NCBI GenBank assembly: GCA_937996685.1
Contig: CALKUP010000006.1
Location: forward strand, 64,001-128,000
DNA: 64,000 nucleotides
Direction of reading: 5' to 3'
Source: an uncultured bacterium
GTDB taxonomy: Bacteria > Patescibacteriota > Patescibacteriia > UBA9570 > XYC2-FULL-38-9
Part shown: positions 8,965 to 62,366 of the stretch, one piece after another
Layout: the number at the start of each line of letters is the position of its first letter
How positions within the stretch are numbered: position 1 is the stretch's first letter
Made by a program: the position numbers and the translations under genes
Notes under the pieces: generated by a model
What the model was told of the DNA's origin: nothing
What the model saw: only the letters and a program-made list of their open reading frames with translations
The model's database searches: none

Positions 8965-8969
8965 AGTAG

Positions 8970-11390: not shown

Positions 11391-11392
11391 AT

Positions 11393-16088: not shown

Positions 16089-16501
16089 GGATCTTCTGAA
16101 AACGCAAAGATCCATAATTTTTGCAACGCGAAACTAAAGACGCCTGCCGCCATTCCTGAGAATGGTTTTGCGATGATGTCTAATATATGGAAGTGTTCAA
16201 CTAAGCCCCACAGCACACTTTGGTTGATTAATAGCGCAACACCGGTTGCAACATAAAACTTCAACATCTGTTGATACGAAAACTCATGTGTTTTACCGGA
16301 ATGATGCTTGAATGTCCAACGACGACTCCAATAATAGCCATTCACGCCTGACACAACGAACGCAATTAACGCCGCGAGTAAATAATGTTCTCGGAAAAAC
16401 ACAATACCGCGAGTAAGGCTGATAAACACAGCCGAATCAATCGCGGTATTGAGAACGCCAATAATGCCGAATTTACTGAACTGCAGGATCGTATGCTTCA
16501 T
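16061..16501 (-). CDS. GtrA-family membrane protein (polysaccharide synthesis / flippase accessory)
   Basis: FGIIGVLNTAIDSAVFISL ... YWSRRWTF, four TM helices, about 146 aa. Confidence 0.65.
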   Translation of the reverse strand: MKHTILQFSKFGIIGVLNTAIDSAVFISLTRGIVFFREHYLLAALIAFVVSGVNGYYWSRRWTFKHHSGKTHEFSYQQMLKFYVATGVALLINQSVLWGLVEHFHILDIIAKPFSGMAAGVFSFALQKLWIFAFSEDPQDEEEIVL

Positions 16502-17663: not shown

Positions 17664-17793
17664 ACGTTACATGTTTCGCCGCTGTCTTAATCAAGAAATG
17701 TGAGCGACAGAAAACAGTAACAGGTTTTCGCTATTTTGTCAAGTCTATACACCAAAAGACCTTTTTCCTATAGAAAAAATTGTCTAATATTGG

Positions 17794-19674: not shown

Positions 19675-19676
19675 AT

Positions 19677-21737
19677 CTAGAAATTGAATATACCATAACT
19701 CATCGGAACAATCTCGTTTGTGCCATCCTCATCAATGTCAGAGATTGTAATAAAACCACCGCTCTTGTTTGATTTTGGAAAGGCGTAAAAACCATTGTTC
19801 ACCACTTTTTTCTTACTTTTTTCCATTCGGAACACACGCACAAAACTCCCAGCGCGCGCGGCTGGCATTGTGACAATTTCTTCAAAACCATCACCGTCCA
19901 AATCACCACTTGCGAGCGACACGCCAGAAGTCACGCCTGTGTCATACGCCGTGAACCCGCCTTTCATGCGTTTGCATTGAGCGTTATAAATCCGGACTTC
20001 TGGCTTCCCGGACGTTGCAGGAGCGACAATAATTTCTTTGCCAGACTTTTCTTTAATCACATCACCAATTGCCAAATTCACACCGCGCACTTGCCCAGCA
20101 GAAAAGACATCACAACCATTGCTGATTTTTTTACCCGTCAAGTCATACATTTTAATCGACGGACTCCCTGTTTTTGCGCCAACGACAATGCGATACGGTT
20201 TCAAACGACCTTTCTTTGCACCCTTTTTGTCTGGCGCTTCTAAACGATCAATATCCATTGACAGTCCGCCACGATAACTTGTTCCAAACGGCGCAAACCG
20301 CGCGAGTTTTTTTGACCCCTTATAGACAGTGACATATGTCTTATCTGCCACGATTGTTTTATTGCCATCAGCGAGATGATGAATCACTGTTCCCCCTTCA
20401 TATTTCCGGTTAAAGGCAAAGAAACTCGTTCGAACGCGCTTGCCTTTGTTGCTGTAAATATTGGTAAATGCGCCGTTGAAAAATGCAGCATCATCAATCT
20501 GTTGCAAACGCCTGCGTAATATAATCGCATCTTTTGGCTTCAATGTAATCTTTCCGGTTGTGGCGCCATTATTCACTTTTTTTTCTTTTGTTCCACGCAC
20601 TTTTTCATACCCACTTTCCAATGTGATCGTTTGATTTTTTGAGGTTGAATTGAGCAACACAATACCATTATCAAAATCACGTCGCCAGACACCATTTTGA
20701 ATCTTGTATGGATTATTTGGATTCTTGAGATTTCGTGCCTTGCCGTGCGCTTTGCCGAGATTCACTAAATATTCATCATACAGCCACACGCTGTTATGTT
20801 TATCAACACCGTTATCATATCCAGCGTATGTTCCAGAAACCAAACCAGACGCGATTGAAAAGCGCATTTTCTTGTAATCTGTTTCTGAACCTTGCGCAGA
20901 AAAAATAATTCCTACTGGATCCATATTATATTGTTCCAGTGTTGGAACATTTTCTGACACTCCGTCCCATTGTCCATTCGCATGCCACGGCGTTGGAAAA
21001 TCTTCAAACATCCGACCATTAATATCACTTTGCATATCAAGATTTGATGCGCCGTTGATAATAATCAATTTATCTTTGCCAATTTTTGATCGGGTGGATT
21101 TAAATAATTCTTTATATCCAGCCACCCACTGAGAATTCACATTACTATCCACAACGCCATCGCGATTCAAATCAAGACCACCAAGGTAATCGAGGTTATC
21201 TTCGACAACATCAAAAAAGACACCATCCCAACAATTTTTTGAACCGCACTTGTCGTTATTCAAATCAGCAACAAATGATGCAATCGCTTCTCGTGTATCG
21301 CTTCGTGTAATATTCAAATCCGATTCCCCGGTATATCGAGACACAATCGAACCGTTTGGTCTGCGGAGATACCAATCGTCTTGCAGCACATCAATCAACC
21401 GCTGTCGTGTCGCGGACGCGTTTAATGTCACCACACCCTGACTTGGGACATACGGCAAAATTTTGATCTTTGGATTGAGTTCGCGCAACGTCTTGATTCC
21501 TTCGAGGTTATATTCAGCCGCTTCCATTGTCACAATCACTAAATCAAATTTCGCAATATCTTTGGCTTGCGCTTGCGTGAAACAACAATCAACATAATAC
21601 AATGACAGCAATGGATACGTTGTTGCGGCTTGCGCTTGAATACTTCCCGCATACAACACACATCCCACGACAAATAACGACACAATACAGCGACGCAGCA
21701 GAACTACAGGTTGAGAAAATTGTGCTATCATACTCAT
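19677..21737 (-). CDS. Secreted protein: GH114/GHL-type TIM-barrel glycoside-hydrolase-like N-domain plus C-terminal FG-GAP repeats
   Basis: Signal peptide MSMIAQFSQPVVLLRRCIVSLFVVGCVLYAGSIQAQA. YYVDCCF...DGVFFDVVEDNL resembles endo-alpha-1,4-polygalactosaminidase-like folds. C-terminal GDLDGDGFEEIV and ISDIDEDGTNEIV repeats. Confidence 0.45.
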   Translation of the reverse strand: MSMIAQFSQPVVLLRRCIVSLFVVGCVLYAGSIQAQAATTYPLLSLYYVDCCFTQAQAKDIAKFDLVIVTMEAAEYNLEGIKTLRELNPKIKILPYVPSQGVVTLNASATRQRLIDVLQDDWYLRRPNGSIVSRYTGESDLNITRSDTREAIASFVADLNNDKCGSKNCWDGVFFDVVEDNLDYLGGLDLNRDGVVDSNVNSQWVAGYKELFKSTRSKIGKDKLIIINGASNLDMQSDINGRMFEDFPTPWHANGQWDGVSENVPTLEQYNMDPVGIIFSAQGSETDYKKMRFSIASGLVSGTYAGYDNGVDKHNSVWLYDEYLVNLGKAHGKARNLKNPNNPYKIQNGVWRRDFDNGIVLLNSTSKNQTITLESGYEKVRGTKEKKVNNGATTGKITLKPKDAIILRRRLQQIDDAAFFNGAFTNIYSNKGKRVRTSFFAFNRKYEGGTVIHHLADGNKTIVADKTYVTVYKGSKKLARFAPFGTSYRGGLSMDIDRLEAPDKKGAKKGRLKPYRIVVGAKTGSPSIKMYDLTGKKISNGCDVFSAGQVRGVNLAIGDVIKEKSGKEIIVAPATSGKPEVRIYNAQCKRMKGGFTAYDTGVTSGVSLASGDLDGDGFEEIVTMPAARAGSFVRVFRMEKSKKKVVNNGFYAFPKSNKSGGFITISDIDEDGTNEIVPMSYGIFNF

Positions 21738-21864
21738 GAACAGATTCGTCTCCTATAATATACCTATTTTTTACGATTCTTTCCATCCTTTGTAGCAAGT
21801 GTGCTCAAAGAATGAACAACATAATACATCATATTTTTTCTTTTTTGTCAATATTCTAGATCGT

Positions 21865-22938
21865 ATGAACATTGGACTTGATTATCGCACAACCACTCCA
21901 CCGAAAACCGGCGTCTTTTCTGTCACGCAAACGCTGGCAACCGAGCTCACTGCGCGCGGGCACGCTGTCTCGTATCCTCGTCCTTCAATCCCTTTTCGAT
22001 TACAAAATGCATTATGGCCTTCTGCACTGCGACGCCTTGCTCCAATTGACCGCGGAGTATCACTCGACATCTATCACCATCTCTGGCCATTTGGTGCGCT
22101 CCCACACACGAAGCATGCCAAACGTATTTTCACGATTCACGACATCATCCCACTACACGAAACATCACGAACAGCATTTTCACAACGACAGATTCGACAA
22201 TTTAGACACTGGGTCAAAGACGGCATTGAACGTGCGGATCAGGTTCATTTTATTTCGGAGTTCACAAAACACGATGTACTCAATCACTATGACATCGCAG
22301 ATAATCCAACGAAATTTTCAGTCGCGCATCTTGGCGTTTCTCATGACTATGTCACAAGCAGCAGCCTTCTCAAAGCGAAGTTGCCGCACGAACTCACCTC
22401 TATTGAATCAACGTTGATTCATAACAAGAAAACACTAATGGAAGGCTTTTTCTTTTTGCTCGCCTCACACTTGCCGCATAAAAATATTCAAGCGGTTATT
22501 GATGCGTACGACGAAACTTTTCCACCGCTGATTATTGCCGGCAGCGATACGAATACACTCACAACCACAAAACGCAACATTGTCTTTACTGGCTATATCG
22601 AACAGCCGACAATTCTCTGGTTATACGACAACGCTCTTGGGTTTATTTTTCCATCACTCCACGAAGGCTTTGGGTTACCGGTGATTGAAGCGATGATGCG
22701 TGGCTGTCCAGTAATCGCGAGCAGCTCAACAAGTATCCAGGAAATTGCCGGCAATGCAGCGCTTTTAATCGACGCGCGCGAACCAGAAGCGATCACACAC
22801 GCCATCAACGAATTATTGCTTTCATCTGAACTGCAAGACAAATTGCGAACTGCCGGAATCGTCCACGCGCAACAATTTACACCACACGCATTTGGCGATC
22901 GAATGCTCGCGCTTTATCAACGCGCGCTCGCTGTATAA
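21865..22938 (+). CDS. Glycosyltransferase family 4
   Basis: EGFGLPVIEAMMRGCPVIASSSTSIQEIAG motif. Likely start is ATG 21865 (MNIGLDY); the track ORF begins at 21799. Confidence 0.75.
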   Translation: MNIGLDYRTTTPPKTGVFSVTQTLATELTARGHAVSYPRPSIPFRLQNALWPSALRRLAPIDRGVSLDIYHHLWPFGALPHTKHAKRIFTIHDIIPLHETSRTAFSQRQIRQFRHWVKDGIERADQVHFISEFTKHDVLNHYDIADNPTKFSVAHLGVSHDYVTSSSLLKAKLPHELTSIESTLIHNKKTLMEGFFFLLASHLPHKNIQAVIDAYDETFPPLIIAGSDTNTLTTTKRNIVFTGYIEQPTILWLYDNALGFIFPSLHEGFGLPVIEAMMRGCPVIASSSTSIQEIAGNAALLIDAREPEAITHAINELLLSSELQDKLRTAGIVHAQQFTPHAFGDRMLALYQRALAV

Positions 22939-24083
22939 TATTGCAATAACTGCGCGATGTGTGACTCAACTGTACTGTTTGCGTACGGTGTGTAACTCTG
23001 TTTCAAGGTGTCTAATTCTGTTATTTTTTTAGCCAGGTCTGCGCTGTTGCCCATTTCAAACCACCAACCATCGACACCATCAGTTAATACATCAATCGAT
23101 CCAGTGTTCGCCGCAATGACCCATGTTCCAACGGTGTGCGCCTCGGGAATTACTAAACTATTCACCTCATACCACTTTGACGGAACAATCAAGGCTTTTG
23201 CGCGTTTCATGTAATCACGAACCACAGTCCGAGATTGATACCCAAGCCATTGAATATTTTCCGGCGCATCTTGCGCAGCTGCCGGACCTTCCCCAATCAC
23301 AATATATTTTTGTTCAGGCAACAAATGAGCTGATTCAATCAGTGTATCCAATCCTTTTTCCGCAGATAGTCTTCCGACATATAACACAAAATCATCCCGC
23401 TCGTGTTGTGGGACCGGATTCAATTCCAGTTCGCTTTCTGTAAAATTATGCAACACCACAGTCGGCAGATTCGCACGATATTCATGAATCTGTTTTTGCA
23501 TAAAATATGACGGCGCGATCACAAGATCAATATTTTTTTGATAGCGTTTGAACAACCACGTGTAATACGCTTCGGTTGCGAGCAACACACGCCGCGCAAG
23601 TGATTCATCAGATGCACCCGGGAACAACAAGCGATAGTATTGATGAATTTTTGTCGCCTCTGTAATACGACCCGCGGCAAACAAGCTGTAATTTGGTGCA
23701 ATTAATTTGTAGTCATGCGCTGTCATCACCACCTTCGCTCCAGACGCGCGCGCAATCGGCAAAATCGCTGTTGTCAGCTGATGATAGATATTGTGCAGAT
23801 GAATGACATCTGGCTGAAACCGATCAATCACTGCTTGGAATTTTTCTGCCGCTTCTTTGTTATAAATAAATCGCTTTGCCGCAGAGAGCGTCGGACGATC
23901 TTGGTGATAATTTGACTCTGACACAAAATAATCATTCCAGCGTGACGGTTCATTGTCTGGATGCTGCATCCCAAACCGCGCAACCTCATGACCACGTGTT
24001 TGCAGTTCACGCGTTAATTGCAAACAATAGATGTCAGCGCCACCTTTTGGATACCAGAATTTATTCACCTGCAAAATTTTCAT
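22917..24083 (-). CDS. Glycosyltransferase family 4
   Basis: MKILQVNKFWYPKGGAD N-terminus, GT-B C-terminal domain. Converges on and overlaps the previous GT4 by 22 nt. Confidence 0.75.
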   Translation of the reverse strand: MKILQVNKFWYPKGGADIYCLQLTRELQTRGHEVARFGMQHPDNEPSRWNDYFVSESNYHQDRPTLSAAKRFIYNKEAAEKFQAVIDRFQPDVIHLHNIYHQLTTAILPIARASGAKVVMTAHDYKLIAPNYSLFAAGRITEATKIHQYYRLLFPGASDESLARRVLLATEAYYTWLFKRYQKNIDLVIAPSYFMQKQIHEYRANLPTVVLHNFTESELELNPVPQHERDDFVLYVGRLSAEKGLDTLIESAHLLPEQKYIVIGEGPAAAQDAPENIQWLGYQSRTVVRDYMKRAKALIVPSKWYEVNSLVIPEAHTVGTWVIAANTGSIDVLTDGVDGWWFEMGNSADLAKKITELDTLKQSYTPYANSTVESHIAQLLQYYTASAR

Positions 24084-24119
24084 ATCTATAGTATACTGTA
24101 TTTAGAAAAAAAATTCGAC

Positions 24120-25346
24120 ATGAAAAAAAATACAAAAAAAATTCTTGTTGTCACAGAGCGATGGTATCCGGATACATTCGGCGGATCTGAGCGTCTCGCC
24201 TTCGAACAAGTGCAAGGACTTGCGGACGCTGGATTTTCTGTTGACGTGTTTGTTGCGACGAACATGCGCGCTCTGCCGCTGACTGAACACACAGACCAGC
24301 ACATCACGATTCACCGCGCGCCAGGAGCGCTCGCGATTCCTGGAAACCAACTGTATTCCATTAATGTCCAAAGTCGCAAACCACTCGCGGCATTACTGAC
24401 CGCAGAGCGCTACGACGCGATACTCTGTCATCACCCGCAAATTGGCGACGCTGTTTTAACATATCGCGTTGGAACAAAAAACTTCCACACTCCTCTACTC
24501 TATTTTTTTCACAGTAGTCAGCCACAAGAAATTCGCGTTGACGGACCAAATCGCTCATATCCTGGGAAAGCGATCTGGAATGAAATTGTCGCACAATATG
24601 TTGAAGCCAAAGAACACCGCATTCTCCGAGCCGCAGACCACATCATGGTCTTCAGTGCATTCAGCTCGAACATTTTGCACACACTCAACAACGCTGCTTG
24701 GGAACATTCTGAAATTATCTCACCTGGAATTAATACCGATCTCTACGACACTGTCTTTGAACGCAGACAAACCCACACCGGAAGCTTTACGCCAGACACC
24801 ACGGCAAAGACTCGTTTTTTTACGATCCGACGCCTGACAAAACGCATGGGACTCCATCTACTTATTCAAGCCCTTGGAACAGATCCACTCGCGCATACAT
24901 ATGAACTACGGATTGCTGGATCCGGAGCCATGGAATCAGAACTAAAAAAACTCGCCGCGCAATTCCCGAAGCTCACCGTTCATTTTCTTGGCAATATTTC
25001 AATGAAAGAATTAGAGTCAGAACTGATTCACGCAGATGCGTTTGTTTTACCGACAATTGCCTTAGAAGGATTTGGCATCGCGACACTTGAAGCATTGCTC
25101 TCTGGCGTTCCAGTGATTGCGACAAACGTTGGCGCCACTCCTGAATTATTACAACCAATTAACCCTGCAATGATCGCAGACGGCGCAAACATCGACGCGC
25201 TTCAGAAGGCTGTTCATCACTTTACTGACTTGTCACAAAAAGAACGGATCGCCTTAGGTAAGAAATGTCGATCAGTATCACTCAAAGCCTACAGCGCCGA
25301 TGCGATGAATAAAAAAATCATCAAGGCGATTAAACGGTTTTCGTAA
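24120..25346 (+). CDS. Glycosyltransferase family 4
   Basis: MKKNTKKILVVTERWYPDTFGGSERLAFE N-terminus, C-terminal LEGFGIATLEALLSGVPVIATNVG motif. Start ATG 24120 (track ORF from 24018). Confidence 0.75.
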   Translation: MKKNTKKILVVTERWYPDTFGGSERLAFEQVQGLADAGFSVDVFVATNMRALPLTEHTDQHITIHRAPGALAIPGNQLYSINVQSRKPLAALLTAERYDAILCHHPQIGDAVLTYRVGTKNFHTPLLYFFHSSQPQEIRVDGPNRSYPGKAIWNEIVAQYVEAKEHRILRAADHIMVFSAFSSNILHTLNNAAWEHSEIISPGINTDLYDTVFERRQTHTGSFTPDTTAKTRFFTIRRLTKRMGLHLLIQALGTDPLAHTYELRIAGSGAMESELKKLAAQFPKLTVHFLGNISMKELESELIHADAFVLPTIALEGFGIATLEALLSGVPVIATNVGATPELLQPINPAMIADGANIDALQKAVHHFTDLSQKERIALGKKCRSVSLKAYSADAMNKKIIKAIKRFS

Positions 25347-25638
25347 GCTTGTATTTTTTTACAAGCTGTAATTCTTCTCCTCGAAAAATGAAAGACCCAT
25401 ATATATAGGAAATTGCAACAAGCACTATCACCGCTAATTCCAGCCCATATCGACCATTCACAAGCGGAAAGACATCTTTCAAAAGAGGAAGTACAGCAAA
25501 AAATACAATAAGCAGTGTAACTAACGATTGATAACTACGCTGATATGCACGGAGATATAATTGTTGCTCACGCTCATCTGCGGGTTGAAACCGAAACCAG
25601 AAAAGGTGCTTTTTAACAGTGGGTAGCATAGTGTTCAT
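25330..25638 (-). CDS. Small two-TM membrane protein cotranscribed with an XRE regulator
   Basis: ATG 25638 (MNTMLPTVKK) lies 2 nt past the HTH gene stop. Hydrophobic helices LVTLLIVFFAVLPLL and LAVIVLVAISYIYGSFIF. Confidence 0.45.
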   Translation of the reverse strand: MNTMLPTVKKHLFWFRFQPADEREQQLYLRAYQRSYQSLVTLLIVFFAVLPLLKDVFPLVNGRYGLELAVIVLVAISYIYGSFIFRGEELQLVKKYKLTKTV

Positions 25639-25642
25639 ATAG

Positions 25643-25852
25643 TTATTTTTTAAACGTAAAAATATCCTCAATTGAAACATGAAATAATTTTGCGCATTTC
25701 CAAGCCAAAAAAAGTGACGGCTGGTATTTTCCCTGCTCTAAAGCAATGATTGTTTGCCGTGTGACGTCTAAATTTTCAGCGAGCTGCTCTTGCGTAAAAC
25801 CCTTCGTCACTCGAAAATCTTTCAGTTTTGATTGAATAGTTGTTGGTTCCAT
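25643..25852 (-). CDS. XRE-family helix-turn-helix transcriptional regulator (Cro/CI-type)
   Basis: 69 aa, [47 protein letters not shown]. Confidence 0.75.
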
Positions 25853-25864
25853 GTAAAATATACC

Positions 25865-25897
25865 TTACATTTAAAATGTAAAACATTTTTTACATTT
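25865..25897. promoter_or_regulatory. Operator-like palindromes upstream of the XRE regulator gene
   Basis: TTACATTT-A-AAATGTAA perfect palindrome overlapping a second inverted repeat AAATGTAAAA-catt-TTTTACATTT. A TATATT -10-like element sits 4 nt before the ATG at 25852. Confidence 0.45.
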
Positions 25898-25931
25898 GGT
25901 CAATATAAAAATATGGACAGTTATCCACAAA

Positions 25932-25957
25932 CAAAAAACTCCGGTACAAGACCGGAG
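25932..25957 (-). terminator. Rho-independent terminator of rplL
   Basis: CTCCGGT-ACAAG-ACCGGAG hairpin with a T-tract on the minus strand (plus-strand CAAAAAA at 25932-25938). Confidence 0.65.
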
Positions 25958-25979
25958 TTTTTCTTACAATAACAATGAA

Positions 25980-26384
25980 CTATTTCAAAGTTACTGTTGC
26001 ACCTGCTTCTTCTAATTTCGCTTTCATTGCTTCAGCGTCTTCTTTCTTCGCGCCAGTTGCTACCATTGCTGGAGCTCCGTCAACGAGGTCTTTTGCTTCT
26101 TTCAAGCCAAGAGCTGCAACTTCTTTCACAGCTTTGATAACACCAATTTTGTTATCACCGATTGCTGTCAATTCAACGTCAAACGCTGATTTTTCTTCTG
26201 CTGCTTCTCCGCCTGCTGCTGGACCTGCTGCGGCCATCATCATTGGAGCTGCTGCTGAAACGCCGAACTTATCTTCGAGGATTGAAACCAATTCTGAAAG
26301 ATCAAGTACTGACATTTGTTCGATTTGTTCAACCAAAGCTTTGAACTTTTCTGGTACTTCTACCGGAGTTTTTTCTTCTGACAT
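25980..26384 (-). CDS. rplL: 50S ribosomal protein L7/L12
   Basis: [42 protein letters not shown] ... [22 protein letters not shown]. Confidence 0.9.
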
Positions 26385-26408
26385 ATGTGTATATGAATAG
26401 ATTATGAA

Positions 26409-26936
26409 TTAAGCTGACTTTTGTTCTGAAATGCGTGTAAGCACTGTCATTAAGTTTCGTTGGTTTCCAGCGAACACATTGACCAAGCCAGAAATTGGAG
26501 CATTCATGCTTCCAACCATCTTGGCAAGTAATTCTTGTTTGCTTGGGAGTTTTGAGAGAGCAATCATTTCTTCACCAGAAAGGATTTTTCCTTCAAGAAC
26601 ACCAGCGTAAAAACTCACAACGTCATGGGTTTTTGCAAAATCGGCAACTGCCTTTGCAGGAGCAACTTCATCTTTGAAACCAAAGATAACAGCAACACCG
26701 GATTCCATGCCGTCAACAACTGAATCGTCAGATCCGTTGTCTTTCAACATGCGTTTGATGAGGCTTTTTTTCGCAACCATCATCTCACTGTTTTCTGCCT
26801 TGAGTTCTTTGCGCAACGCTTGCACATCACTCACAGTCAGACCCATGTAGCGTGCAAACACGACACTTTTTGAGTCAACAAACTTTTGTGAAAGTTCACT
26901 GAGTGTTTGTTCCTTTTGTTGTCGTGTTTTTGGCAT
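26409..26936 (-). CDS. rplJ: 50S ribosomal protein L10
   Basis: MPKTRQQKEQTLSELSQKFVDSKSVVFARYMGLTVSDVQALRKELK. Start ATG 26936 (track ORF from 26966). Confidence 0.85.
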   Translation of the reverse strand: MPKTRQQKEQTLSELSQKFVDSKSVVFARYMGLTVSDVQALRKELKAENSEMMVAKKSLIKRMLKDNGSDDSVVDGMESGVAVIFGFKDEVAPAKAVADFAKTHDVVSFYAGVLEGKILSGEEMIALSKLPSKQELLAKMVGSMNAPISGLVNVFAGNQRNLMTVLTRISEQKSA

Positions 26937-27148
26937 AATTATGGTTCGTGTTATTTGAGATAACACTGAATTAAAAAACTGCGTTTTTGACGCAGGTAAT
27001 AGACGAAGTAATAAAAACAGATGAAGCAGAATCTGTTTATGACCTTCAGTGAATTACACCTGCGTCGGTCTTATGAAACGTGGATATTACACCACTTTCG
27101 CCGACGGTCTTGGGTACAATTTCTCTATCCGAAAGGGATAGTTGTACG
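26937..27148 (-). promoter_or_regulatory. Candidate L10 (rplJ) leader, a long 5' UTR with two terminator-like hairpins
   Basis: About 210 nt between the predicted TSS and the rplJ ATG. Hairpins ACAGAT-8-ATCTGT plus T5 (27011-27036) and CTGCGT-5-ACGCAG plus T6 (26971-26995) on the minus strand. Confidence 0.4.
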
Positions 27149-27154
27149 AGAATG

Positions 27155-27183
27155 AGTATACGAAAAAGCTGGATTTTTGTCAA
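27155..27183 (-). promoter_or_regulatory. Sigma70-like promoter TTGACA-17-TATACT for the rplJL operon
   Basis: Minus-strand TTGACA (plus 27178-27183), 17-nt spacer, TATACT (plus 27155-27160). Confidence 0.5.
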
Positions 27184-27204
27184 TATTTTTTAAAATACGG
27201 TTTT

Positions 27205-27256
27205 AATAGAAAAACATGCCGGCCAACTTTCTTTGTTTCAAGAAAAGTTAGCCGGC
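27205..27256 (-). terminator. Terminator hairpin downstream of the high-GC GT4 gene (bidirectional potential)
   Basis: 13-bp imperfect stem GCCGGCCAACTTT/AAAGTTAGCCGGC followed on the minus strand by ATGTTTTTCTATT. An adjacent second hairpin CCTGGT-6-ACCAGG (27265-27282) has a T-tract on the plus strand. Confidence 0.45.
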
Positions 27257-27286
27257 GGAGACCGCCTGGTGCGTCAACCAGGTGGT

Positions 27287-28513
27287 TTATTTTTGCTTCG
27301 GGATTCCGAGGCGCTTCCGATTGAGGAGCGCCATCACCCGAGGACCGTAAAGCTCCAGACCCAGGTGCGCAACCAAATCGCGACACTTCTGAGGATCAGG
27401 GGTGAAGTGCTGCAGCCGCTCCAGAGCCAGGCAACCGAAGTCGTCAAGCCGAGGATTGAAGCGATCGTTCCATCTTTCCTGCCACGGAATCGTCGCCACC
27501 GCCTGTGGCGACTTGCAGTGACTCAGAAGTCCAACGTTGTCGAAGCCGAAAACTGGAACTCTGGCCGCAAGCATCTCTGCCGCAACCAGGCCGAAGGCCT
27601 CTCTCCAAGGGCTATTCCTCGAACCATCAAAGCTTCTCGGATTTGAAGTGAAGAAGCCCAAGTCAGCATCGTCCAAGATCCGCGACATCATACAATTGTC
27701 TCCCTCACCGTAGTAGGTGACGAAGTGTGCGGTCTCTGCTCTATTCTCGAAGAGATGTTGACGAGCGTAGTAGTGACCATGATGAGGATCGATTGGTCCC
27801 ATGACGTGGAGACGCAGATCCGGCGCCCAGCCCGATTCCCGCATCGCCTTGCAGGCTGCGATCGCAAGATCAAGACCTTTCACGCGGTCAACTCGTCCAA
27901 GGAACACTGCATTTTTTGGTGGCCAGACGTGAGCCTGCTTTTGGGTATGCACCAGACCCGTAGGGTTTTCCAGGCAGCCTGCATACCTGTTAGGCGCTCG
28001 CTCGTACTGCCCGAGCCCGACCGCGTAGTTGCTGATTCTGATGTCGCCGATTGCATCACTGAGATACTGACCCTGATCCAGGTGAACCAGGTTGTGAATG
28101 CGACCAGCATCAATACCTTCGAGCAAGTGCGCGTGCGTACCGAGATCGTTGAAGATGATGTGGTCAGGCCGATACGGCAAAGCCAAAATTGCCGCCTTCA
28201 CCTTGCGGTAGTAGGCAATCGGCTCAGCATGCGGGTCAAAGTCAGCATCCCAAGTCTCCCATCCGTAAGACACACGGCGATCATGACCACCCTCAGTGTA
28301 GGCGGAGGGCAACTGCAGGACCACAGTCGAATTCTCCATGCCGTCTGAACCGGCCGCGACGATGCAGTGGACGCCCACTTTATCACGCATATACCCCAAA
28401 GCCATCACGAGACGACGAGCAACGACGCCGCTACCTGAAGTTCTTGAATTGCGGACAGGGAACCGATCCGGACCAACAACGACAACCTTCTGCTTCTTGA
28501 TCTCAGCAGCCAT
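27287..28513 (-). CDS. Glycosyltransferase family 4-like (GT-B) encoded in a high-GC island
   Basis: RVDRVKGLDLAIAACK ... FGLVAAEMLAARVPVFGFDNVG GT4-type motifs. About 58-60% GC against a ~42% neighbourhood. Strong SD GGAAGGTGA 6 nt before the ATG. Confidence 0.6.
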   Translation of the reverse strand: MAAEIKKQKVVVVGPDRFPVRNSRTSGSGVVARRLVMALGYMRDKVGVHCIVAAGSDGMENSTVVLQLPSAYTEGGHDRRVSYGWETWDADFDPHAEPIAYYRKVKAAILALPYRPDHIIFNDLGTHAHLLEGIDAGRIHNLVHLDQGQYLSDAIGDIRISNYAVGLGQYERAPNRYAGCLENPTGLVHTQKQAHVWPPKNAVFLGRVDRVKGLDLAIAACKAMRESGWAPDLRLHVMGPIDPHHGHYYARQHLFENRAETAHFVTYYGEGDNCMMSRILDDADLGFFTSNPRSFDGSRNSPWREAFGLVAAEMLAARVPVFGFDNVGLLSHCKSPQAVATIPWQERWNDRFNPRLDDFGCLALERLQHFTPDPQKCRDLVAHLGLELYGPRVMALLNRKRLGIPKQK

Positions 28514-28690
28514 GAGTCACCTTCCTGCTTCTCTTTCTGATTGTGGAAGAACAGTACTTTCAGCACTGCTTATCGAAATAAACAGCCCTAAAAATAGCTC
28601 CTATAAATACTATAAAAATACCCACCTGTCAAACAAACAAGTATTTTTTCACCAGAAAATTGGCTGGTCTTATTTTCCTACAACTCTCAC

Positions 28691-31363
28691 CTATTTCTTG
28701 ATTTGCAACTTGTACTTTTTACTTAATGTATACCGCAATACGCGTTTTGACTTACTTGTGCGCAACTCAACTGTATCCTTGGCTGATAATCGAGTTTTTG
28801 AGGCCTTGACCTTTGTACTCGTAAACTTCACCACTGCTGTTTTTGAAAAGCCTTTTTGATCTTTTTTGATACGCAAGACAATCAATCGACCATTGTTTTT
28901 CCCCTTTTTATTTTTGAGTGTCACAATCGCGTCTTGTGATTTATCTTTGCGCAGATCTTTAATCAAGAGCGCTTTTTCTGCCCACGGCACAGAACTAATT
29001 CGTTTATTTGCAACACGCTCACCGGTGTATGCATTTAACACAGAAAGGTATTTTCCTTTCGGAGACAGGACAAGTAAATATCCGGTATTTGGAATGCGTG
29101 CTACTTCCGGCTGTCCCACAGTATCACCTGACTCAGGAGTAAAGACCGCTGTCTCACCCGTCGAATATGTAACAGTAATTGTTCCGTTGTTTCCTGCGGT
29201 CACACCACTAACTAACGTGTCATAGGTTGTTGCGTTTGTTGGATCTTGCGCTGCACGCTCATCTGGCGTGAATGTGTCACTGCCACTTGTTGTTGAACCG
29301 CCAGCTCCTGGAGTAGAAGCTGCTGCCGCAACAGTCACTACACGCGTTGCCTCACCTCGATTTCCTGAAGCGTCGACACTTGCATAAGTTAATGTATAGG
29401 TCCCTGCAACTGCCGTATTCACCGAACCGGACACCGTCACGCTCGTTGAACCAGTGCACGCATCTGCGGCTGTTGCTCCTGAGTCTGTAAATGTATCACC
29501 AACAGTCAGCGACGGAGCTGCGTTGCCAGAAACAGTCACAACTGGCGCAACACGATCAACGACGTTCACTGTACGATTTGTCGTTGCAACACGTTGAATA
29601 AAGTTTGTCAGTGAATAGGTTGTTGTAAATGAATGAACAAAACTAGCATCAAGCGAACTCGGCGCAGCAATCGCTGTCGTTGATTGAGAGGTATATGAAT
29701 CAAGCGCGCTCGCTCCTGGGTCAGTTGCCGCAACTCCACACTCAAGTGTTAATGGATTTGCGCCGGTAAGCGCCGGTGTTGTCGCAACAGAATAAATCAA
29801 ATGTGTTAACCCATTGTTTGTAACAGCGCCGCGTGTTCCGTCGTCGCTCACTGCTAATTCATCGTATCCGTCATTGTTCATGTCGAGACCAATTGAACCA
29901 ACAGTTGGGTACCCATCAGCACCAGGTGTCTCAAACACAACGCTACTAGCTGCGCTGGCTTGTGTTGCGATGTCAGATCGGCCATATAACAATGTATATT
30001 GATCACTACTTGTTGCTGTTGCGTATTGAAAAAACAACAGATCATCAATGCCATCGCCGTTCACGTCGCCGCTATTGTCGACAATCCGAGGATCATAAAT
30101 TGTTGAGCCTGTTGAAATCAGGTTTCCGGTCGACAACAATGCTGATGAAAAACGACCGAGCTGCCCGAAAAATAAACGCCCCCCAATTGTAAAATCAGAA
30201 TAGGTGTCATTATTATTGTCTCCTCCACCAGCTACTGTTAGGCCCGCATACTCACTCGCTGAAGACCCTGAAAAACGACTTGCTTGCCCGCCTGTTGCAA
30301 GCGAATTAATTGAATAACTCCCACTTAAGAGCGCATCTGAATCACACACAGCACTTGAACCAGCGCCATACAAAACATATCCAGCGCCAGCAATCGCATT
30401 ACTTCCTACTTTAAGGTATGGAGCACCCATTACAATATCAGCACACCCATCATGATCAACATCACCAGCAGCGCTCAGCGAAAAACCAAGAGCACCGCCT
30501 GAGCCAGTAATAATCCCAGTTCCAGGATCAACAGCAAGGTCTGCCACCTCACCGGTAATCCGCTTCACAGAAGAATGGGCAACGACGCTCACAATTAAAC
30601 CGTCCCCAGGTGTTCCACCGTACGCAGTGACAACTTCAGCTGGAGTTCCAGATGTACCATAGACAACATAGACAGCACCTTCAGTTGTTGGTGCTGAAAA
30701 TGCATTTTCTGTAAAATATGGCGCGCTAAAAACAACATCGTCAAGACCGTCATTATTCAAATCCCCTGCACGAATAACAGAGCCGCCAGCCATTGCGGCA
30801 GTTGCACTTGAAGAGGCTGGAATTGCAAACGCAATGAATTTATCAGCAGTATTAGACAGGTCAATCAACGAACCTCCGGTTAACTCTTCTTTTCCAAAAA
30901 TTAAAAAGGCCGCGCCTTGTCCACGACTTGAAGGAGCTCCGCCATATTTATATCCGCCGGCGAGTACAACAAAATCATCCATTCCATCGCCATTCACGTC
31001 GCCCACTCCGGAAATAGACGAACCGAATCCATCATTTGTTTGATAACTTGTGTATTCAATAGCTTGCATTGGATCAGCCGTCACTGTTGCTGCTGTGCCT
31101 TCTGCAACTTGCCCGGCTGCACCAAACACGACAACGACGGAATTACGCCCGAGCTTTGTTGCAGAGTATGCAAAGTCCTGGTATCCATCACCATTTACAT
31201 CACCAATAAAACCATGAGCGCCCATGACTTTATTTGATGCATCCGCAGCACTAAACGTTCGAATCGCTCCTTGGTCAGACTGTAAGCCAACTGCTTGAAC
31301 AGAAAACGGAACACAGGCAGCAATTGCACATAAAACGGATAAGATGAGCTTTGAATATCGCAT
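28691..31363 (-). CDS. Giant secreted FG-GAP repeat protein with a DUF5011-like Ig domain and a Lys-rich C-terminal tail
   Basis: Signal peptide MRYSKLILSVLCAIAACVPFSVQA (ATG 31363; track ORF from TTG 31384). Motifs GDVNGDGYQDFAY, GDLNNDGLDDVVFSAPY, GDVDHDGCADIVMGAPY. DUF5011-like VAPVVTVSG...GATAADAC...TYTLTYASVD. Tail ...KSKRVLRYTLSKKYKLQIKK. Confidence 0.7.
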   Translation of the reverse strand: MRYSKLILSVLCAIAACVPFSVQAVGLQSDQGAIRTFSAADASNKVMGAHGFIGDVNGDGYQDFAYSATKLGRNSVVVVFGAAGQVAEGTAATVTADPMQAIEYTSYQTNDGFGSSISGVGDVNGDGMDDFVVLAGGYKYGGAPSSRGQGAAFLIFGKEELTGGSLIDLSNTADKFIAFAIPASSSATAAMAGGSVIRAGDLNNDGLDDVVFSAPYFTENAFSAPTTEGAVYVVYGTSGTPAEVVTAYGGTPGDGLIVSVVAHSSVKRITGEVADLAVDPGTGIITGSGGALGFSLSAAGDVDHDGCADIVMGAPYLKVGSNAIAGAGYVLYGAGSSAVCDSDALLSGSYSINSLATGGQASRFSGSSASEYAGLTVAGGGDNNNDTYSDFTIGGRLFFGQLGRFSSALLSTGNLISTGSTIYDPRIVDNSGDVNGDGIDDLLFFQYATATSSDQYTLLYGRSDIATQASAASSVVFETPGADGYPTVGSIGLDMNNDGYDELAVSDDGTRGAVTNNGLTHLIYSVATTPALTGANPLTLECGVAATDPGASALDSYTSQSTTAIAAPSSLDASFVHSFTTTYSLTNFIQRVATTNRTVNVVDRVAPVVTVSGNAAPSLTVGDTFTDSGATAADACTGSTSVTVSGSVNTAVAGTYTLTYASVDASGNRGEATRVVTVAAAASTPGAGGSTTSGSDTFTPDERAAQDPTNATTYDTLVSGVTAGNNGTITVTYSTGETAVFTPESGDTVGQPEVARIPNTGYLLVLSPKGKYLSVLNAYTGERVANKRISSVPWAEKALLIKDLRKDKSQDAIVTLKNKKGKNNGRLIVLRIKKDQKGFSKTAVVKFTSTKVKASKTRLSAKDTVELRTSKSKRVLRYTLSKKYKLQIKK

Positions 31364-35750: not shown

Positions 35751-37202
35751 TTACTTCCGGATGGCGCCGTGGGGAGTACCTTCATGGAAGGCGGCCGACG
35801 TCTGCACGCCAACGATCGCTTCCACACAGAACTCAGGCAACGTGCGTGCGCCGACGTAGGTCATCGAGGACTGAAGTCCTGTGATGTAGGCCGCGACGAA
35901 GCGACCGACGGTGTCCTGGCCTTCACGCAGGAATACCTTCGAGTTGGAGATACCCTCCTCGTACATCGCACGGATCGCAGCCTCGAATTCACCAATGCCG
36001 GCGTTGCGGTCCACAACGGCGCGACGCGATGCCATGCCGAAGTTCACCTTGTAGGCCGCGCCGTCCGGGTCGCGCTTGAGCTCGCCGGGCGCCTCGTACG
36101 TACCCGCGAGAGATGTGCCGATCATGACGCGGCTTGCTCCGGCAGCGAGGTAGAGACCCAGATCGCGCGGGTGCTTGACGCCCCCGTCGGCCCAGATGAA
36201 TCCACCAACATCCTTCGCCGCAAGCGCGCAAGCGACGGTAGTGCTGAAGCTCGGGCGACCGACACCGGTCTGCAACCGCGTCGTACACATCGCTCCCGGG
36301 CCGACGTTCGTCTTCACGATGTCGGCACCGGCCTCGATCAGACGCTTGACGCCGTCGGGCATGCAGACATTGCCGGCCACGAGCTTCACGCCGGGATCGA
36401 CCGCGGCACGGACCTCGCGTAGTGCCTTGAGCATCTTAACCTGGTCGCCGTGCGCCGTGTCGAGCACGATCACACTGGCGCCAGCCTCGACACACGCGAC
36501 AGCCTTTTTGACCGACTCGCCGTTGATTCCGACGGCAGCACCGACTGCCATGTCGCTCGTCTGCCATGGGTTGAGAGCTCGGTGGACCAGAAGGTCCCGA
36601 CTGACGGTGCCGATGAGCACGCCACTGCTGTCCACAACCGGAGCCACGCTAACGCGAGCAGCGAAGAGCTGTTCGAACATGTACTGAAGCGAGGAGTCGG
36701 GACGGATCGCGAATGGCGCGGTCATGAAGGCATGCGCCTTCGCAAACGGGTCGAGCTTCTCGCGAAACTTGTCATCCCACAGGTCGTCGGGAGTGACAAC
36801 ACCGAGTGGCTTGCGCTGATCGTCAACCACGATCACCAAGCGGCAGCCGCGGCGGTTCACGAGATCCATCACGAGGCGCGCGTCCTGGTTCGGCCCCACG
36901 GTGAGCGGGGTCTCGAAGATCGGATGCGCACTGCAGACCTTGCGGATCGCGCGCGTGACGGTCTCGACCGACATGTCCTGTGGAAGGATGGCGATGCCAC
37001 CGGCGCGAGCGAGGGCCTCGGCCAGACGCTTCCCCGCCACCGCGTTCATGTTCGCGGCGACGATCGGATTGCTGCCAGGCAGGCCGTCGATCGGGGTGAT
37101 GTTGACATCACGGCGGGAGTTACCGGTCCAGTGACCCTGGCAAAGGAAGACGTCCTCGAGCGCGAGCTCACGACAAGCATCCTCAGAGTTAAGAAAACGC
37201 AT
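35751..37202 (-). CDS. IMP dehydrogenase / GMP reductase family protein with a CBS pair (GuaB1-like), high-GC island
   Basis: Catalytic loop NVGPGAMCTTR. CBS pair within ...LTVGPNQDARLVMDLV...VVDSSGVLIGTVSRDLL. About 62-67% GC. Start ATG 37202 (MRFLNSED) preceded by SD GGAAGGAGA. Confidence 0.75.
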   Translation of the reverse strand: MRFLNSEDACRELALEDVFLCQGHWTGNSRRDVNITPIDGLPGSNPIVAANMNAVAGKRLAEALARAGGIAILPQDMSVETVTRAIRKVCSAHPIFETPLTVGPNQDARLVMDLVNRRGCRLVIVVDDQRKPLGVVTPDDLWDDKFREKLDPFAKAHAFMTAPFAIRPDSSLQYMFEQLFAARVSVAPVVDSSGVLIGTVSRDLLVHRALNPWQTSDMAVGAAVGINGESVKKAVACVEAGASVIVLDTAHGDQVKMLKALREVRAAVDPGVKLVAGNVCMPDGVKRLIEAGADIVKTNVGPGAMCTTRLQTGVGRPSFSTTVACALAAKDVGGFIWADGGVKHPRDLGLYLAAGASRVMIGTSLAGTYEAPGELKRDPDGAAYKVNFGMASRRAVVDRNAGIGEFEAAIRAMYEEGISNSKVFLREGQDTVGRFVAAYITGLQSSMTYVGARTLPEFCVEAIVGVQTSAAFHEGTPHGAIRK

Positions 37203-37391
37203 GCTGTCTCCTTCCTGCGTATGCAGCAAACGCCCATCTCGTGGGCGTTATCTCTGTTTTTTCAATTTTCAATTCAGTCGTGTGCAATGGGATCTCCATT
37301 GCGCTTTCCACACTGAACGATGTGCCAACCTTACACCATTTTTTTCTTAAAAGTCAACAATAAATGTGCGTAACTTTTTTACAAAATATCA

Positions 37392-37420
37392 TTGACCTTT
37401 TTCTTATTTCCGCGTAGGCT
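37392..37420 (+). promoter_or_regulatory. Actinobacteria-style promoter TTGACC-17-TAGGCT for the rdgB-like gene
   Basis: TTGACC at 37392-37397, 17-nt spacer, TAGGCT (TANNNT) at 37415-37420. GGAGAA SD 8 nt before ATG 37461. Confidence 0.4.
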
Positions 37421-37460
37421 GACCGCGCACATTTCACAACCTTTCGACTGGAGAACGCGC

Positions 37461-38141
37461 ATGCACAACGCACTGTCTGCATATACCGCTGTCGTCGCAA
37501 CCGGTAACGGCGGCAAGTCAGAAGAAGTTTTGCGGATTCTCGCACGACTCGGGATTCGCGCCGTGACACTCGAGAGCCTCGGGTTCGCTGTCCTCGACGT
37601 CGAGGAGACCCAGACAACCTACACCGGTAACGCGCGCCTCAAGGCGAACGCGCATTTCGACCAGCACAGCCGAGACATCACCGAGAAACTCGGCAAAGAG
37701 ACCTGGTTCTTGGTCTGCGAAGACTTCGGGCTCGCAGTGGATGCGCTGCTCTGTCTTGCAACAACAGAGCAGGGGTACACCGGCTTCCCTGGCCTCTACA
37801 CCCGGAGGTTTCACCCCGGAACCGACGCTGATCGGGCACGAAAAGTCCTTTATCTACTGAAGCAACGCTGGGCTGCCGTTCGGACTGCAAAATTCTTCTG
37901 CGGCGTGGCACTCCGCGGCCCTGGAATCGACCTAGCTGAGCTCCGGCTCTGCAACGGACAGATCACCATCGAGCCGCGAGGAGATCAGTCAAGCTTTCCG
38001 CTTGACCAAATCTTCATTCCGAGCCTGGACCGCGAGGCACGCACCTTCGGGGAAATGCGCCCGGAAGCGAAGGATCGGATCAGTGCTCGTGGCCTGGCTG
38101 TTCGGGCCGTGGTCGAAGAGCTGTTGAAGAAATTGGCGTAA
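37461..38141 (+). CDS. rdgB: Non-canonical purine NTP pyrophosphatase (RdgB/HAM1 ITPase family), high-GC island
   Basis: AVVATGNGGKSEE (ATGNxGKxxE motif) and FIPSLDREARTFGEMRPEAKDRISARG C-terminal motif. Start ATG 37461 (track ORF from 37392). Confidence 0.8.
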   Translation: MHNALSAYTAVVATGNGGKSEEVLRILARLGIRAVTLESLGFAVLDVEETQTTYTGNARLKANAHFDQHSRDITEKLGKETWFLVCEDFGLAVDALLCLATTEQGYTGFPGLYTRRFHPGTDADRARKVLYLLKQRWAAVRTAKFFCGVALRGPGIDLAELRLCNGQITIEPRGDQSSFPLDQIFIPSLDREARTFGEMRPEAKDRISARGLAVRAVVEELLKKLA

Positions 38142-38220: not shown

Positions 38221-39435
38221 TTATTGAAACACCGAACCTTTTGCGATAACGCCGTTTCCGACACGTTCAACCAACACACTCGACAACGACGTGACTGACC
38301 CCTGTGAACCAAAGCCACTATTTGTCATATTCACCACAACTGGATCACCAGACTCTGTAAAATCAACAACCACGTATAACGTGTCATCTGCAAAGAATAA
38401 AATATCACCTGAACGATAGCCACTCGTCAAAAGCGCGTCCCCTTCTGTCAGGCCGCTGGTGTGTGCAAACCACTGCTTGATATTTGCCGGACGATACGCA
38501 AAATCTTCTGCCCCGCTATCTCCTTGGTATCCATCCGGATGTTGCAGTGCATCACGATGAATCTCTTGATCGAGAAAAATCCCAAAACCACGAAACAAAC
38601 GCCACGGCATGTCATGATTTGAAATGAATCCCATTTTTTGCATAATTCTGAGCGGCACTCCTTCTGTAACATCATAATAGACACCAGTCACTGCATTCCC
38701 AGCAGTCCGTAATTCAATTGTATTATCAATCCCATCACCGTCACTATCGCCATCAATGCGATTTCGCTTGCCGTCTCCGTCCATATCTTCGTCAAGATAA
38801 TTCACAATGCCATCACTATCCACATCACCATATTGCAACATAGCAGGACCTCGATACGCATGTGCTTGTATCTGCAACAACACACCTGCCCCAATCACAA
38901 ACAATGCAACGACAACGGAAGTCAGCATGCGGTGATAATATGTGTTCACAAATTCTCGCACCAAAAAAATCAAAAACCAACTAATAAAAAATCCTTCGAT
39001 CAAAAAATTGATCAGCAATAATCGATCATTCACAAACAAGATACCGAGATCAGTCAAGCCAAAATATCGCTCATTGAGCGGGTACAAAATCCGTACATTT
39101 GACGCGATCATGTCCGTACACAGATGTGTGAATACACCGATTACAAACGTTGTCACAGCCGCAAACCATAACGGGCGCTTGAGAAAATAACACCCAAACG
39201 CGAGTACAGCCCATGCAACAATGTAGATTGGAAAGGTATGCGTGATGAGTGAGCGATGCGACACAGAGCCATCAATAAAATAGACATACAAAAAATCAAT
39301 GTCCGGAAATATTCCGCCGATAAAACCCGCGATGAGCAGCAAACGTAATTGCGAGCGACGAAAATTGAATACGCCAAACAGTCGCCAGGTTGAACGACTT
39401 GCGAGTGCGCCGAGGGGTCCATGTGCAAAAATCAT
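38221..39435 (-). CDS. Membrane-bound metal-dependent hydrolase (YdjM/DUF457-like) fused to calcium-binding DxDxDG (thrombospondin-type-3-like) repeats and a C-terminal domain of unknown function
   Basis: N-terminal polytopic HxxxD-rich region. DVDSDGIVNYLDEDMDGDGKRNRIDGDSDGDGIDN repeats. Confidence 0.45.
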   Translation of the reverse strand: MIFAHGPLGALASRSTWRLFGVFNFRRSQLRLLLIAGFIGGIFPDIDFLYVYFIDGSVSHRSLITHTFPIYIVAWAVLAFGCYFLKRPLWFAAVTTFVIGVFTHLCTDMIASNVRILYPLNERYFGLTDLGILFVNDRLLLINFLIEGFFISWFLIFLVREFVNTYYHRMLTSVVVALFVIGAGVLLQIQAHAYRGPAMLQYGDVDSDGIVNYLDEDMDGDGKRNRIDGDSDGDGIDNTIELRTAGNAVTGVYYDVTEGVPLRIMQKMGFISNHDMPWRLFRGFGIFLDQEIHRDALQHPDGYQGDSGAEDFAYRPANIKQWFAHTSGLTEGDALLTSGYRSGDILFFADDTLYVVVDFTESGDPVVVNMTNSGFGSQGSVTSLSSVLVERVGNGVIAKGSVFQ

Positions 39436-58919: not shown

Positions 58920-58922
58920 AAT

Positions 58923-59477: not shown

Positions 59478-59500
59478 AGATTATAATGTAAAGCGAGTAA

Positions 59501-60568: not shown

Positions 60569-60578
60569 ATATAACAGG

Positions 60579-60785
60579 TTAATTCTCTTGTTTTTGGAAA
60601 TAAAATAGAATATGTATCAGCGCCAAGAATAACACAAAAAGACCGAAATAATCAAGGTTGATAGAAAACTGCGCAAACCCAGGAAGCCATTGGTCAAGAA
60701 CCAGCAAAACAAGAAACAACGCGCTGCATATTTCCAGCGCTGCTTGATGGACATTCTTTATAAGGGAATAGTGGGATGTTTTCAT
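60579..60785 (-). CDS. Possible small two-TM membrane peptide (uncertain)
   Basis: Internal ATG 60785 of track ORF 60579..60872. The full ORF would overlap the upstream gene by 77 nt. Confidence 0.2.
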   Translation of the reverse strand: MKTSHYSLIKNVHQAALEICSALFLVLLVLDQWLPGFAQFSINLDYFGLFVLFLALIHILFYFQKQEN

Positions 60786-60795
60786 ATACACAGAA

Positions 60796-62286: not shown

Positions 62287-62366
62287 ATAGAAGCAGTATA
62301 ACGAACCAGCCGGTATTTTGCTAGCATGTATTGCGCTTTTACTCAAAATACGGTAGTTTTCAAGCT

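Follow-up and report, generated by a model that had tools for sequence, protein, structure and literature searches.

What keeps a large secreted protein on the surface of a bacterium when none of the familiar anchors can be found in it? The question is raised by two genes in a 64,000-nucleotide stretch of DNA from an uncultured bacterium of the Patescibacteria (GenBank assembly GCA_937996685.1, contig CALKUP010000006.1, positions 64,001 to 128,000 of the forward strand). The whole stretch is referred to as the window, and coordinates are those of the window unless another locus is named. The products of the two genes, here called protein A and protein B, each carry a signal peptide, an acidic body and a strongly basic, lysine-rich C-terminal domain, designated tail A and tail B. 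To our knowledge, the way in which the Patescibacteria, also called the Candidate Phyla Radiation (CPR), hold their large adhesin-like surface proteins is largely unknown, and it is such proteins that are the foremost candidates for attaching these cells to a host. The analysis presented here argues that the two tails are unrelated basic domains and that tail A belongs to an uncatalogued family, a statement that is very probably correct. When the further step is added that the tails anchor their proteins by electrostatic attraction, the reading as a whole is given a probability of roughly 0.5. The features on which the argument depends are the following.

28691..31363, minus strand: gene of protein A, 890 amino acids (aa) from its ATG, in the order signal peptide, FG-GAP propeller, Ig-like domain, tail A.
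31292..31363, minus strand: predicted Sec signal peptide of protein A (MRYSKLILSVLCAIAACVPFSVQA), taken from the translation.
29330..29536, minus strand: Ig-like domain of the bacterial surface type in protein A, preceding tail A (residues 617-685 of the 897-aa open reading frame; Pfam PF16403).
28694..29224, minus strand: full tail-A module, about 177 aa, made up of a non-basic N-terminal extension (a possible fourth blade) and a Lys-rich three-blade part.
28694..29104, minus strand: modelled 137-aa part of tail A, with 11 beta strands in three propeller-type blades; it contains the Lys-rich stretch 28691..29060.
43004..45283, minus strand: gene of protein B, 759 aa, in the order signal peptide, BNR/sortilin-type propeller, basic tail B.
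43007..43321, minus strand: tail B, 105 aa, 28.6% Lys, net charge +28, a probable bacterial Ig-like beta-sandwich.

The listed open reading frame (ORF) of protein A begins at a TTG at 31384 and comprises 897 aa. In Pfam, protein A matches FG-GAP (E = 3.4e-25) and Bact_surface_Ig-like (E = 2.8e-23), and protein B matches Sortilin-Vps10 (E = 5.2e-22) and BNR (E = 2.7e-10). The bodies of both proteins contain 1-2% lysine overall and 0-7% in any block of 40 residues. Over the last 100 and 110 residues, the lysine content is 24 and 22.7% in protein A and 28 and 27.3% in protein B, and the tails as bounded (105-133 aa) contain 20-29%. No other window ORF of 120 aa or more has so lysine-rich a C-terminus; the next in order reaches 15%. 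A reading of the window made earlier from its letters alone (the sequence-only reading) had pointed out lysine-dense tails on two otherwise different proteins, and this likeness of composition is real; its figure of 25-30% lysine is right for protein B and slightly too high for protein A. Charge is divided along the same boundary. The body of protein A has a net charge of -46 and an isoelectric point (pI) of 4.05, its tail +28 and a pI of 10.7, and the corresponding values for protein B are -24 and 4.34 for the body and +28 and 10.8 for the tail.

Neither protein has an LPXTG motif, a PEP motif or a C-terminal hydrophobic segment, and neither matches the S-layer-homology (SLH) domain, which agrees with what had been read from the letters. 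More broadly, no match to PEP-CTERM, SLH, the C-terminal domain (CTD) of the type IX secretion system (T9SS) or other catalogued sorting or wall-binding models was found at E <= 1 in Pfam or E <= 0.1 in NCBIfam. At the DNA level, no tandem repeat underlies tail A or tail B, and a scan for terminators and promoters in the spacer downstream of the protein A gene gave nothing relevant on the coding strand. Two plus-strand ORFs lying over tail A (28338..28859 and 28866..29225) were set aside as mechanical, since it is the protein on the minus strand that shows conservation, across 62 families. A look-up in public assemblies found no exact record of protein A or protein B. Orthologs of protein A, with 84% and 82% identity, are present at two syntenic loci (L001 and L002).

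Are the tails one module or two? The sequence-only reading took them for copies of a single homologous sorting or retention module that ends in L(Q/K)IKK, as in the terminal residues ...YKLQIKK of protein A and ...KTLKIKK of protein B. They are alike in length, lysine content and net charge (+28), and they share the last three residues, a coincidence whose chance at this composition, figured post hoc, is about 0.001. Comparison of the sequences speaks against common descent. BLASTP between the tails gives E = 0.81, and Smith-Waterman and global BLOSUM62 scores over five choices of tail length lie at z values of -0.2 to 1.2 relative to 1000 shuffles; the tails thus align no better than shuffled sequences, the comparison on which the single module had been staked beforehand. 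Profile methods give the same answer. The 63-sequence tail-A profile (alignment A2, described below) aligns in hhalign to tail B with a probability of 0.5%, and to tail B combined with its ortholog (alignment A5) with 0.2%, and the tail-A hidden Markov model (HMM) finds no match in protein B when run with filters off on the six-frame translation of the window (E <= 10). Fold indications also differ, tail A being propeller-like in the model and tail B Ig-like by sub-threshold Pfam scores.

The proposed terminal motif fares no better. No KK ending occurs among the 62 tail-A family members, the L001 ortholog of protein A, although 84% identical, ends in LLLKQ, and the ortholog of protein B ends in KVKGSR; to judge from these termini, the IKK ending is no sorting motif. 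A single shared module is already refuted at the level of sequence and profile, and there is very little chance indeed that it will return. By the same comparisons, tails A and B are non-homologous C-terminal beta domains that have in common only their extreme positive charge. The lesson is a negative one: a likeness in composition between two lysine-rich tails does not amount to homology.

Taken by itself, tail A does recur. Word-indexed protein searches with tail A, tail B and alignment A2 returned no homologs, and the family surfaced only in an exhaustive HMMER search (phmmer) of 1.84 billion cluster representatives with a 134-aa tail-A query at E <= 1e-3. In this search 62 representatives match tail A, each over nearly the whole query (positions 3-132). 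The match lies at the extreme C-terminus in 61 of the 62 and is internal in the remaining one (P0029). Clusters of these members at 90% are tiny (1-4 members). The tail of the window protein scores 123.7 bits against the family HMM. The A2 consensus reads ..Y..TGY..VLHPKGKK.ALVN.YTGEV.....LSK......SLK..DLR.D...E.VVT.K....V.V....V......L.KKD........V.V.KTK..K..I.LR....K......V.K.Y.L., with N24, G28, T104 and L114 near-invariant. Since the consensus ends in V.K.Y.L., the '...KKYKL' of the window protein belongs to the family motif, while the residues that follow it do not.

In a full-length alignment of the 62 members, the conserved region reaches about 50 aa further upstream than the lysine-rich part. 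The upstream block has the consensus v.Sv.G..nG.I.VTYaD.Svy.YtvF..tt.K.TKV.qY and occurs in 58 of the 62, so that the module in protein A extends to about 177 aa (28694..29224). No Pfam or NCBIfam model and no sequence match in the PDB covers tail A, and a search of the literature found no description of such a domain; the earlier statement that the tails did not resemble a described family therefore holds true of tail A. Tail A is a real domain family of about 130-185 aa, with four-stranded propeller-type blades and no Pfam or NCBIfam model, and it is apparently undescribed. Its HMM provides a sequence handle for cataloguing the CPR surface proteome. A metagenome scan with a narrower alignment (A3) recovered three loci only, and scans of viral contigs for protein B and A3 gave no match.

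The fold of tail A was approached by modelling. With the 63-sequence alignment A2, AlphaFold2 returned a model of 11 beta strands with a mean predicted local distance difference test score (pLDDT) of 96.2 and a predicted template-modelling score (pTM) of 0.90, which bears out for tail A the beta-strand character that had been suspected from its alternating residues. From the single sequence of the 174-aa tail the result was unusable (pLDDT 50.7), with four strands placed at low confidence in the upstream block. Against the PDB, Foldseek matched the model to beta-propellers only, over about 124 columns and with TMq values of 0.5-0.6; the matches include DDB1, SF3B3, the WD40 domain of SCAP, BamB, eIF3i, PROPPINs and 2yms. 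The best Foldseek E-value, 5.8e-4, is weak, and the likeness of tail A to propellers is therefore at the level of fold only. The same propeller picture emerged from a viral structure library, and weak Pfam matches point to propellers as well (EIF3I for tail A of the window, Beta-prop_FAM234A_B for a paralogous tail at locus L037). The model predicts with high confidence that tail A folds as three four-stranded propeller blades.

Three blades cannot close a ring alone, and two ways of completing one may be considered. In the first, tail A would be an oligomerisation module in which the incomplete propellers of two or three chains close a single ring, making the proteins multivalent and leaving charge as a secondary matter. 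One of the Foldseek matches, 2yms_A, is a 124-residue chain (TMt 0.61) whose entry title describes a nine-bladed propeller assembly. It resembles tail A in size and in its three-blade arrangement (TMq 0.57, TMt 0.61) but shares only 10% sequence identity with it, at a Foldseek E-value of 4e-3, and by this comparison oligomerisation of tail A is only a candidate. Adjacent genes also often both carry the domain, as at loci L037 and L041. On the other side, joined surfaces carrying about +20 to +40 would be electrostatically unfavourable without a polyanion, and the upstream block, for which four strands are predicted, could serve as a fourth blade of the same chain. This second way is possible on the model: the conserved upstream 50 aa or so may complete the ring. 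The internal-repeat test in hhalign detected no similarity between the upstream extension and the core, so that the idea of a fourth blade draws on length, conservation and predicted strands only. Oligomerisation as the chief role of tail A is unlikely, and it would in any case be compatible with anchoring.

A second structural question concerns origin. The FG-GAP or integrin-alpha propellers (PF01839 and PF13517, with FAM234A/B as PF23727) have four-stranded antiparallel blades as tail A does, and the D-L-R-x-D-G-x-x-E-x-V-V-T segment in blade 2 of tail A lines up with the body loop D-x-N-x-D-G-x-x-D-x-V-V. A paralogous tail weakly matches PF23727 (E = 3.4e-4), and most carriers of tail A have FG-GAP bodies. 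The best alignment of the tail-A profile to the body of protein A in hhalign pairs LLIKDLRKDKSQDAIVTL with the FG-GAP loop IRAGDLNNDGLDDVVFSA, and this pairing is non-significant (probability 0.2%). In other respects the two differ. No FG-GAP model scores in the tail of protein A or of the scanned members, tail A has three, perhaps four, blades as against seven, it is strongly basic rather than acidic, and the Asp/Asn positions that bind Ca are replaced. Moreover, tail A is C-terminal and is also found without an FG-GAP body, on subtilase and Big_5 proteins. The non-significant pairing nevertheless hints that tail A may derive from FG-GAP blades.

What kinds of protein carry tail A? Pfam assignments for the 62 members comprise FG-GAP in 38, Bact_surface_Ig-like in 5, the MopE motif in 5, Peptidase_S8 in 2, Chlam_PMP in 2, PA14 in 1 and Big_5 in 1; the Big_5 carrier also has a choice-of-anchor Q domain in NCBIfam. 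Among 46 full-length members, 44 have a hydrophobic, signal-peptide-like N-terminus, and the remaining two look like truncated gene calls. No family member has an LPXTG motif or a C-terminal hydrophobic segment, and no transmembrane segment or lipobox was recognised in any of them. All organism-labelled members are Patescibacteria (CPR), including HLD21468.1 ('integrin alpha [Patescibacteria group bacterium]'), MFA6028195.1 (Patescibacteria group) and PJA93410.1 and PIW36316.1 (both Candidatus Kerfeldbacteria). The suggestion of a dedicated C-terminal surface-retention domain is plausible and has been strengthened for protein A by this recurrence of one terminal domain on diverse secreted bodies; as a module common to both proteins it has not survived.

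Tail A, as a folded beta domain that closes a variety of secreted proteins, could also be a sorting signal that a dedicated machinery recognises and removes, as in type IX secretion. The type IX domain (Por_Secre_tail, TIGR04183) is likewise an extreme C-terminal beta domain on otherwise unrelated secreted proteins, and the strand motif V-x-K-K-Y-x-L, conserved a few residues before the end of tail A, would suit such recognition. However, that domain belongs to Bacteroidota and forms an Ig-like sandwich of roughly 80 aa, whereas tail A is propeller-like, 130-185 aa long and found in Patescibacteria. No sorting-domain model of NCBIfam or Pfam matches, Sec signal peptides are already present, and no conserved gene for such a machinery lies nearby in ten loci. 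T9SS is not known from Patescibacteria. A cleaved sorting domain is on these grounds highly improbable.

A closer parallel is offered by the non-covalent C-terminal anchors of monoderm bacteria, among them GW modules, SLH, CWB2, LysM and the basic C-terminal domains of Lactobacillus S-layer proteins. Like tail A, these are folded, often basic C-terminal modules on Sec-exported proteins that have no LPXTG motif or membrane anchor, and they occur on varied functional bodies, with several carriers per genome. The resemblance is one in the mode of working; in sequence tail A is unrelated to them (no Pfam match), and in fold it is distinct, being propeller-like. Taken together with the export and the terminal position described above, it is plausible that tail A is a propeller-type fold used as a C-terminal module for surface retention.

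The charge of the family supplies the next line of evidence. Over the 50 members with 400 aa or more, the median net charge of the tails is +20 (range 0 to +41) and their median pI 10.4, and the bodies have a median net charge of -77 (range -237 to -42) and a pI of about 4.05. One could suppose that the basic tails only offset the negative charge of the bodies, for the benefit of folding, solubility or export, with lysine richness as a by-product and no targeting involved. Body and tail charges are opposite across the family, and the same bias is seen on two unrelated folds, as this explanation would expect. It is nevertheless far from stoichiometric, with a median of +20 set against -77, and the positive charge is gathered in one terminal domain instead of being spread along the protein; the domain, moreover, is shuffled among bodies as a unit. 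Charge compensation is very unlikely, and together with the cleaved sorting domain it is ranked as less likely than either oligomerisation or host binding.

Host binding deserves to be set out in full. Under this explanation, tail A would be a lectin-like or adhesin-type domain for a ligand or host, with which an episymbiotic CPR cell binds the anionic surface of its host or a substrate. Its propeller-like fold is in keeping with such a role, small propellers being common lectin folds, and a defined site is suggested by the conservation of polar residues in its loops, namely N24, G28, T104 and those of the D-L-R-x-D-G-x-x-E segment. Nearly neutral versions of the domain exist, and the bodies are adhesin-like (FG-GAP, PA14, Chlam_PMP). 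If tail A served this purpose, however, the proteins would be left with no recognisable hold on the cell that makes them, there being no transmembrane segment, LPXTG motif or lipobox, and a strict C-terminal place on unrelated bodies fits anchors more than ligand-binding heads. A host-directed role for tail A is therefore considered rather unlikely.

Tail B reaches the same charge on a different scaffold. Alone, it matches Big_3_5 with E = 1.2e-6 and 29.4 bits (gathering score 35.5) over positions 3-87 of the 88 in the profile, and it also matches Big_1, Big_14 and Invasin_D3 in Pfam. Its sequence matches in the PDB are weak and are to intimin Ig domains only. Compared with Big_3_5 (PF16640) and the intimin/invasin Ig domains, tail B shows a near-full profile alignment and these intimin matches; it differs in a score below the gathering threshold and in a lysine content of 28.6%, unusual for such domains. 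An Ig-like sandwich is probable from these sequence matches, though not established. In a distant genome (locus L043), a full-length ortholog of protein B shares 32% identity over 746 aa (E = 4e-85), and its tail is 38% identical to tail B, with a net charge of +23 on a body of -56. By this conservation, tail B belongs integrally to a family of BNR-propeller proteins. Tail B was not found on other protein bodies, though its distribution was not surveyed.

The L043 genome also carries a tail-A protein. The ortholog of protein B (2861..5041 of L043, plus strand) lies 3.6 kb upstream of the FG-GAP protein P0010 (8651..10807 of L043, plus strand), which shows 31% identity to tail A, so that the pairing of the two proteins in the window recurs. 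The main argument for a role of charge follows from this: since two unrelated folds have the same charge in genomes that contain both, the charge itself would appear to be what is selected. The proposed mechanism is that, after export by the Sec pathway, the basic C-terminal domain would stick non-covalently to anionic parts of the producer's own envelope. Phospholipid head groups and wall glycopolymers bearing phosphate or carboxylate are the candidate partners. The acidic ectodomain would thereby be retained, oriented and displayed outward by a sortase-independent anchor that may have evolved at least twice on different folds. Tail A would then offer a testable anchoring mechanism and possibly a display tag for these organisms. 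The rhamnose-containing polymer suggested earlier as a binding partner was considered as well. The window holds rmlABCD at 57005..60568 and many GT4 genes at 16-28 kb, and nothing connects either to the tails; rhamnans are not necessarily anionic.

Several observations weigh against electrostatic anchoring by two unrelated domains and are best considered together. The anchoring step is pure inference, drawn from position, charge, domain shuffling and the lack of another anchor. The three-blade arc does not close as a fold and calls for either a fourth blade or assembly between chains. Tail B is classed as Ig-like on Pfam scores below threshold, and the tail of its L043 ortholog gives no Big_3_5 or Ig match in Pfam at E <= 0.1. 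The tails of some members, P0008 and the window copy at 5204..5545 among them, carry little charge (net 0 to +5), and the existence of such near-neutral copies implies that the fold has a role not dependent on charge. Across ten loci, no neighbour gene, no sortase-like or other processing gene and no envelope-polymer pathway recurs. Finally, three loci syntenic with the window (L001, L002 and L003, with 69-84% identity for protein A) come from metagenome-assembled genomes labelled Gammaproteobacteria and Bdellovibrionales. The two labels clash, and neither agrees with the Patescibacteria named for the rest of the family; the labels or the binning of the contigs look unreliable, and Patescibacteria was considered the likely lineage of the window.

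A wider form of the anchoring proposal can be sketched tentatively. It envisages a sortase-independent 'charge-dipole' system of the Patescibacteria in which large, extremely acidic surface proteins would be held electrostatically at an anionic envelope or a host membrane by polybasic beta domains at their C-termini, domains that are interchangeable and belong to two or more unrelated folds. The set may comprise a CPR-specific mini-propeller, which would be a new uncatalogued anchor family, an Ig-like domain and possibly a third type at locus L041. This broader system is doubtful, if less so than host binding by tail A. The suspected third type is a secreted protein of 373 aa with a signal peptide (15555..16676 of L041, minus strand), whose last 90 residues or so are about 32% lysine with a net charge of +32. 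This tail matches neither the tail-A HMM nor any Pfam model; an assignment to FN3 was entertained from a strand pattern that is FN3-like by eye and dropped, as Pfam did not confirm it. It may represent a third kind of basic C-terminal domain. The same locus encodes two adjacent tail-A proteins of 721 and 1954 aa (2308..10402 of L041, plus strand), with FG-GAP/MopE and Big_5 bodies, and locus L037 has a similar pair of 1496 and 1518 aa (10001..19076 of L037, plus strand). At L038, a second FG-GAP protein has a divergent tail-A-like end.

The window itself contains one further copy of the domain, in a third FG-GAP protein.

5204..5545, plus strand: divergent tail-A-type domain of the third FG-GAP protein, matched by the tail-A HMM with 19.9 bits and E = 2e-4 over model positions 8-122.
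3682..5566, plus strand: third FG-GAP gene, made up of the overlapping ORFs 3682..4320 and 4235..5566 in different frames, with FG-GAP Pfam matches in both and a signal peptide in 3682..4320.

The two ORFs are probably one frameshifted gene, or the product of an assembly error, near 4235-4320. Its copy of the domain has 9.6% lysine and a net charge of +5. The sequence-only reading had asked whether all large secreted proteins of the genome carry the basic tail; they do not, as the tail of this frameshifted gene is a near-neutral version.

Other parts of the window are of separate interest. Envelope-glycan genes are dense at 15012..28513 and 57005..63335, and include five GT4 glycosyltransferases, a GHL15/FG-GAP_3 protein, GT87, ManC, UppP (BacA), MltG (YceG) and a complete rmlA-D set for dTDP-rhamnose. 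No diderm marker gene (Bam, Lpt, Lpx) turned up among the annotated ORFs of the window. A type I restriction-modification system occupies 8071..13993 on the minus strand, with N6_Mtase and Methylase_S fused in one ORF (8970..11390) and an HsdR-type helicase/nuclease at 11393..13993. The GC content rises to 0.605 in positions 36001-38000, compared with about 0.44 elsewhere, as part of a GC-rich island that spans 35751..38141. The island encodes an IMPDH/GMP-reductase that includes CBS domains (35751..37229, minus strand) along with a protein of the Ham1 family (37392..38141, plus strand), and it may have been acquired horizontally. Next to it, a YdjM-family membrane protein (38221..39435, minus strand) contains internal acidic D-x-D-G-D repeats (DVDSDGIVNYLDEDMDGDGKRNRIDGDSDGDGIDN) that recall calcium-binding repeats.

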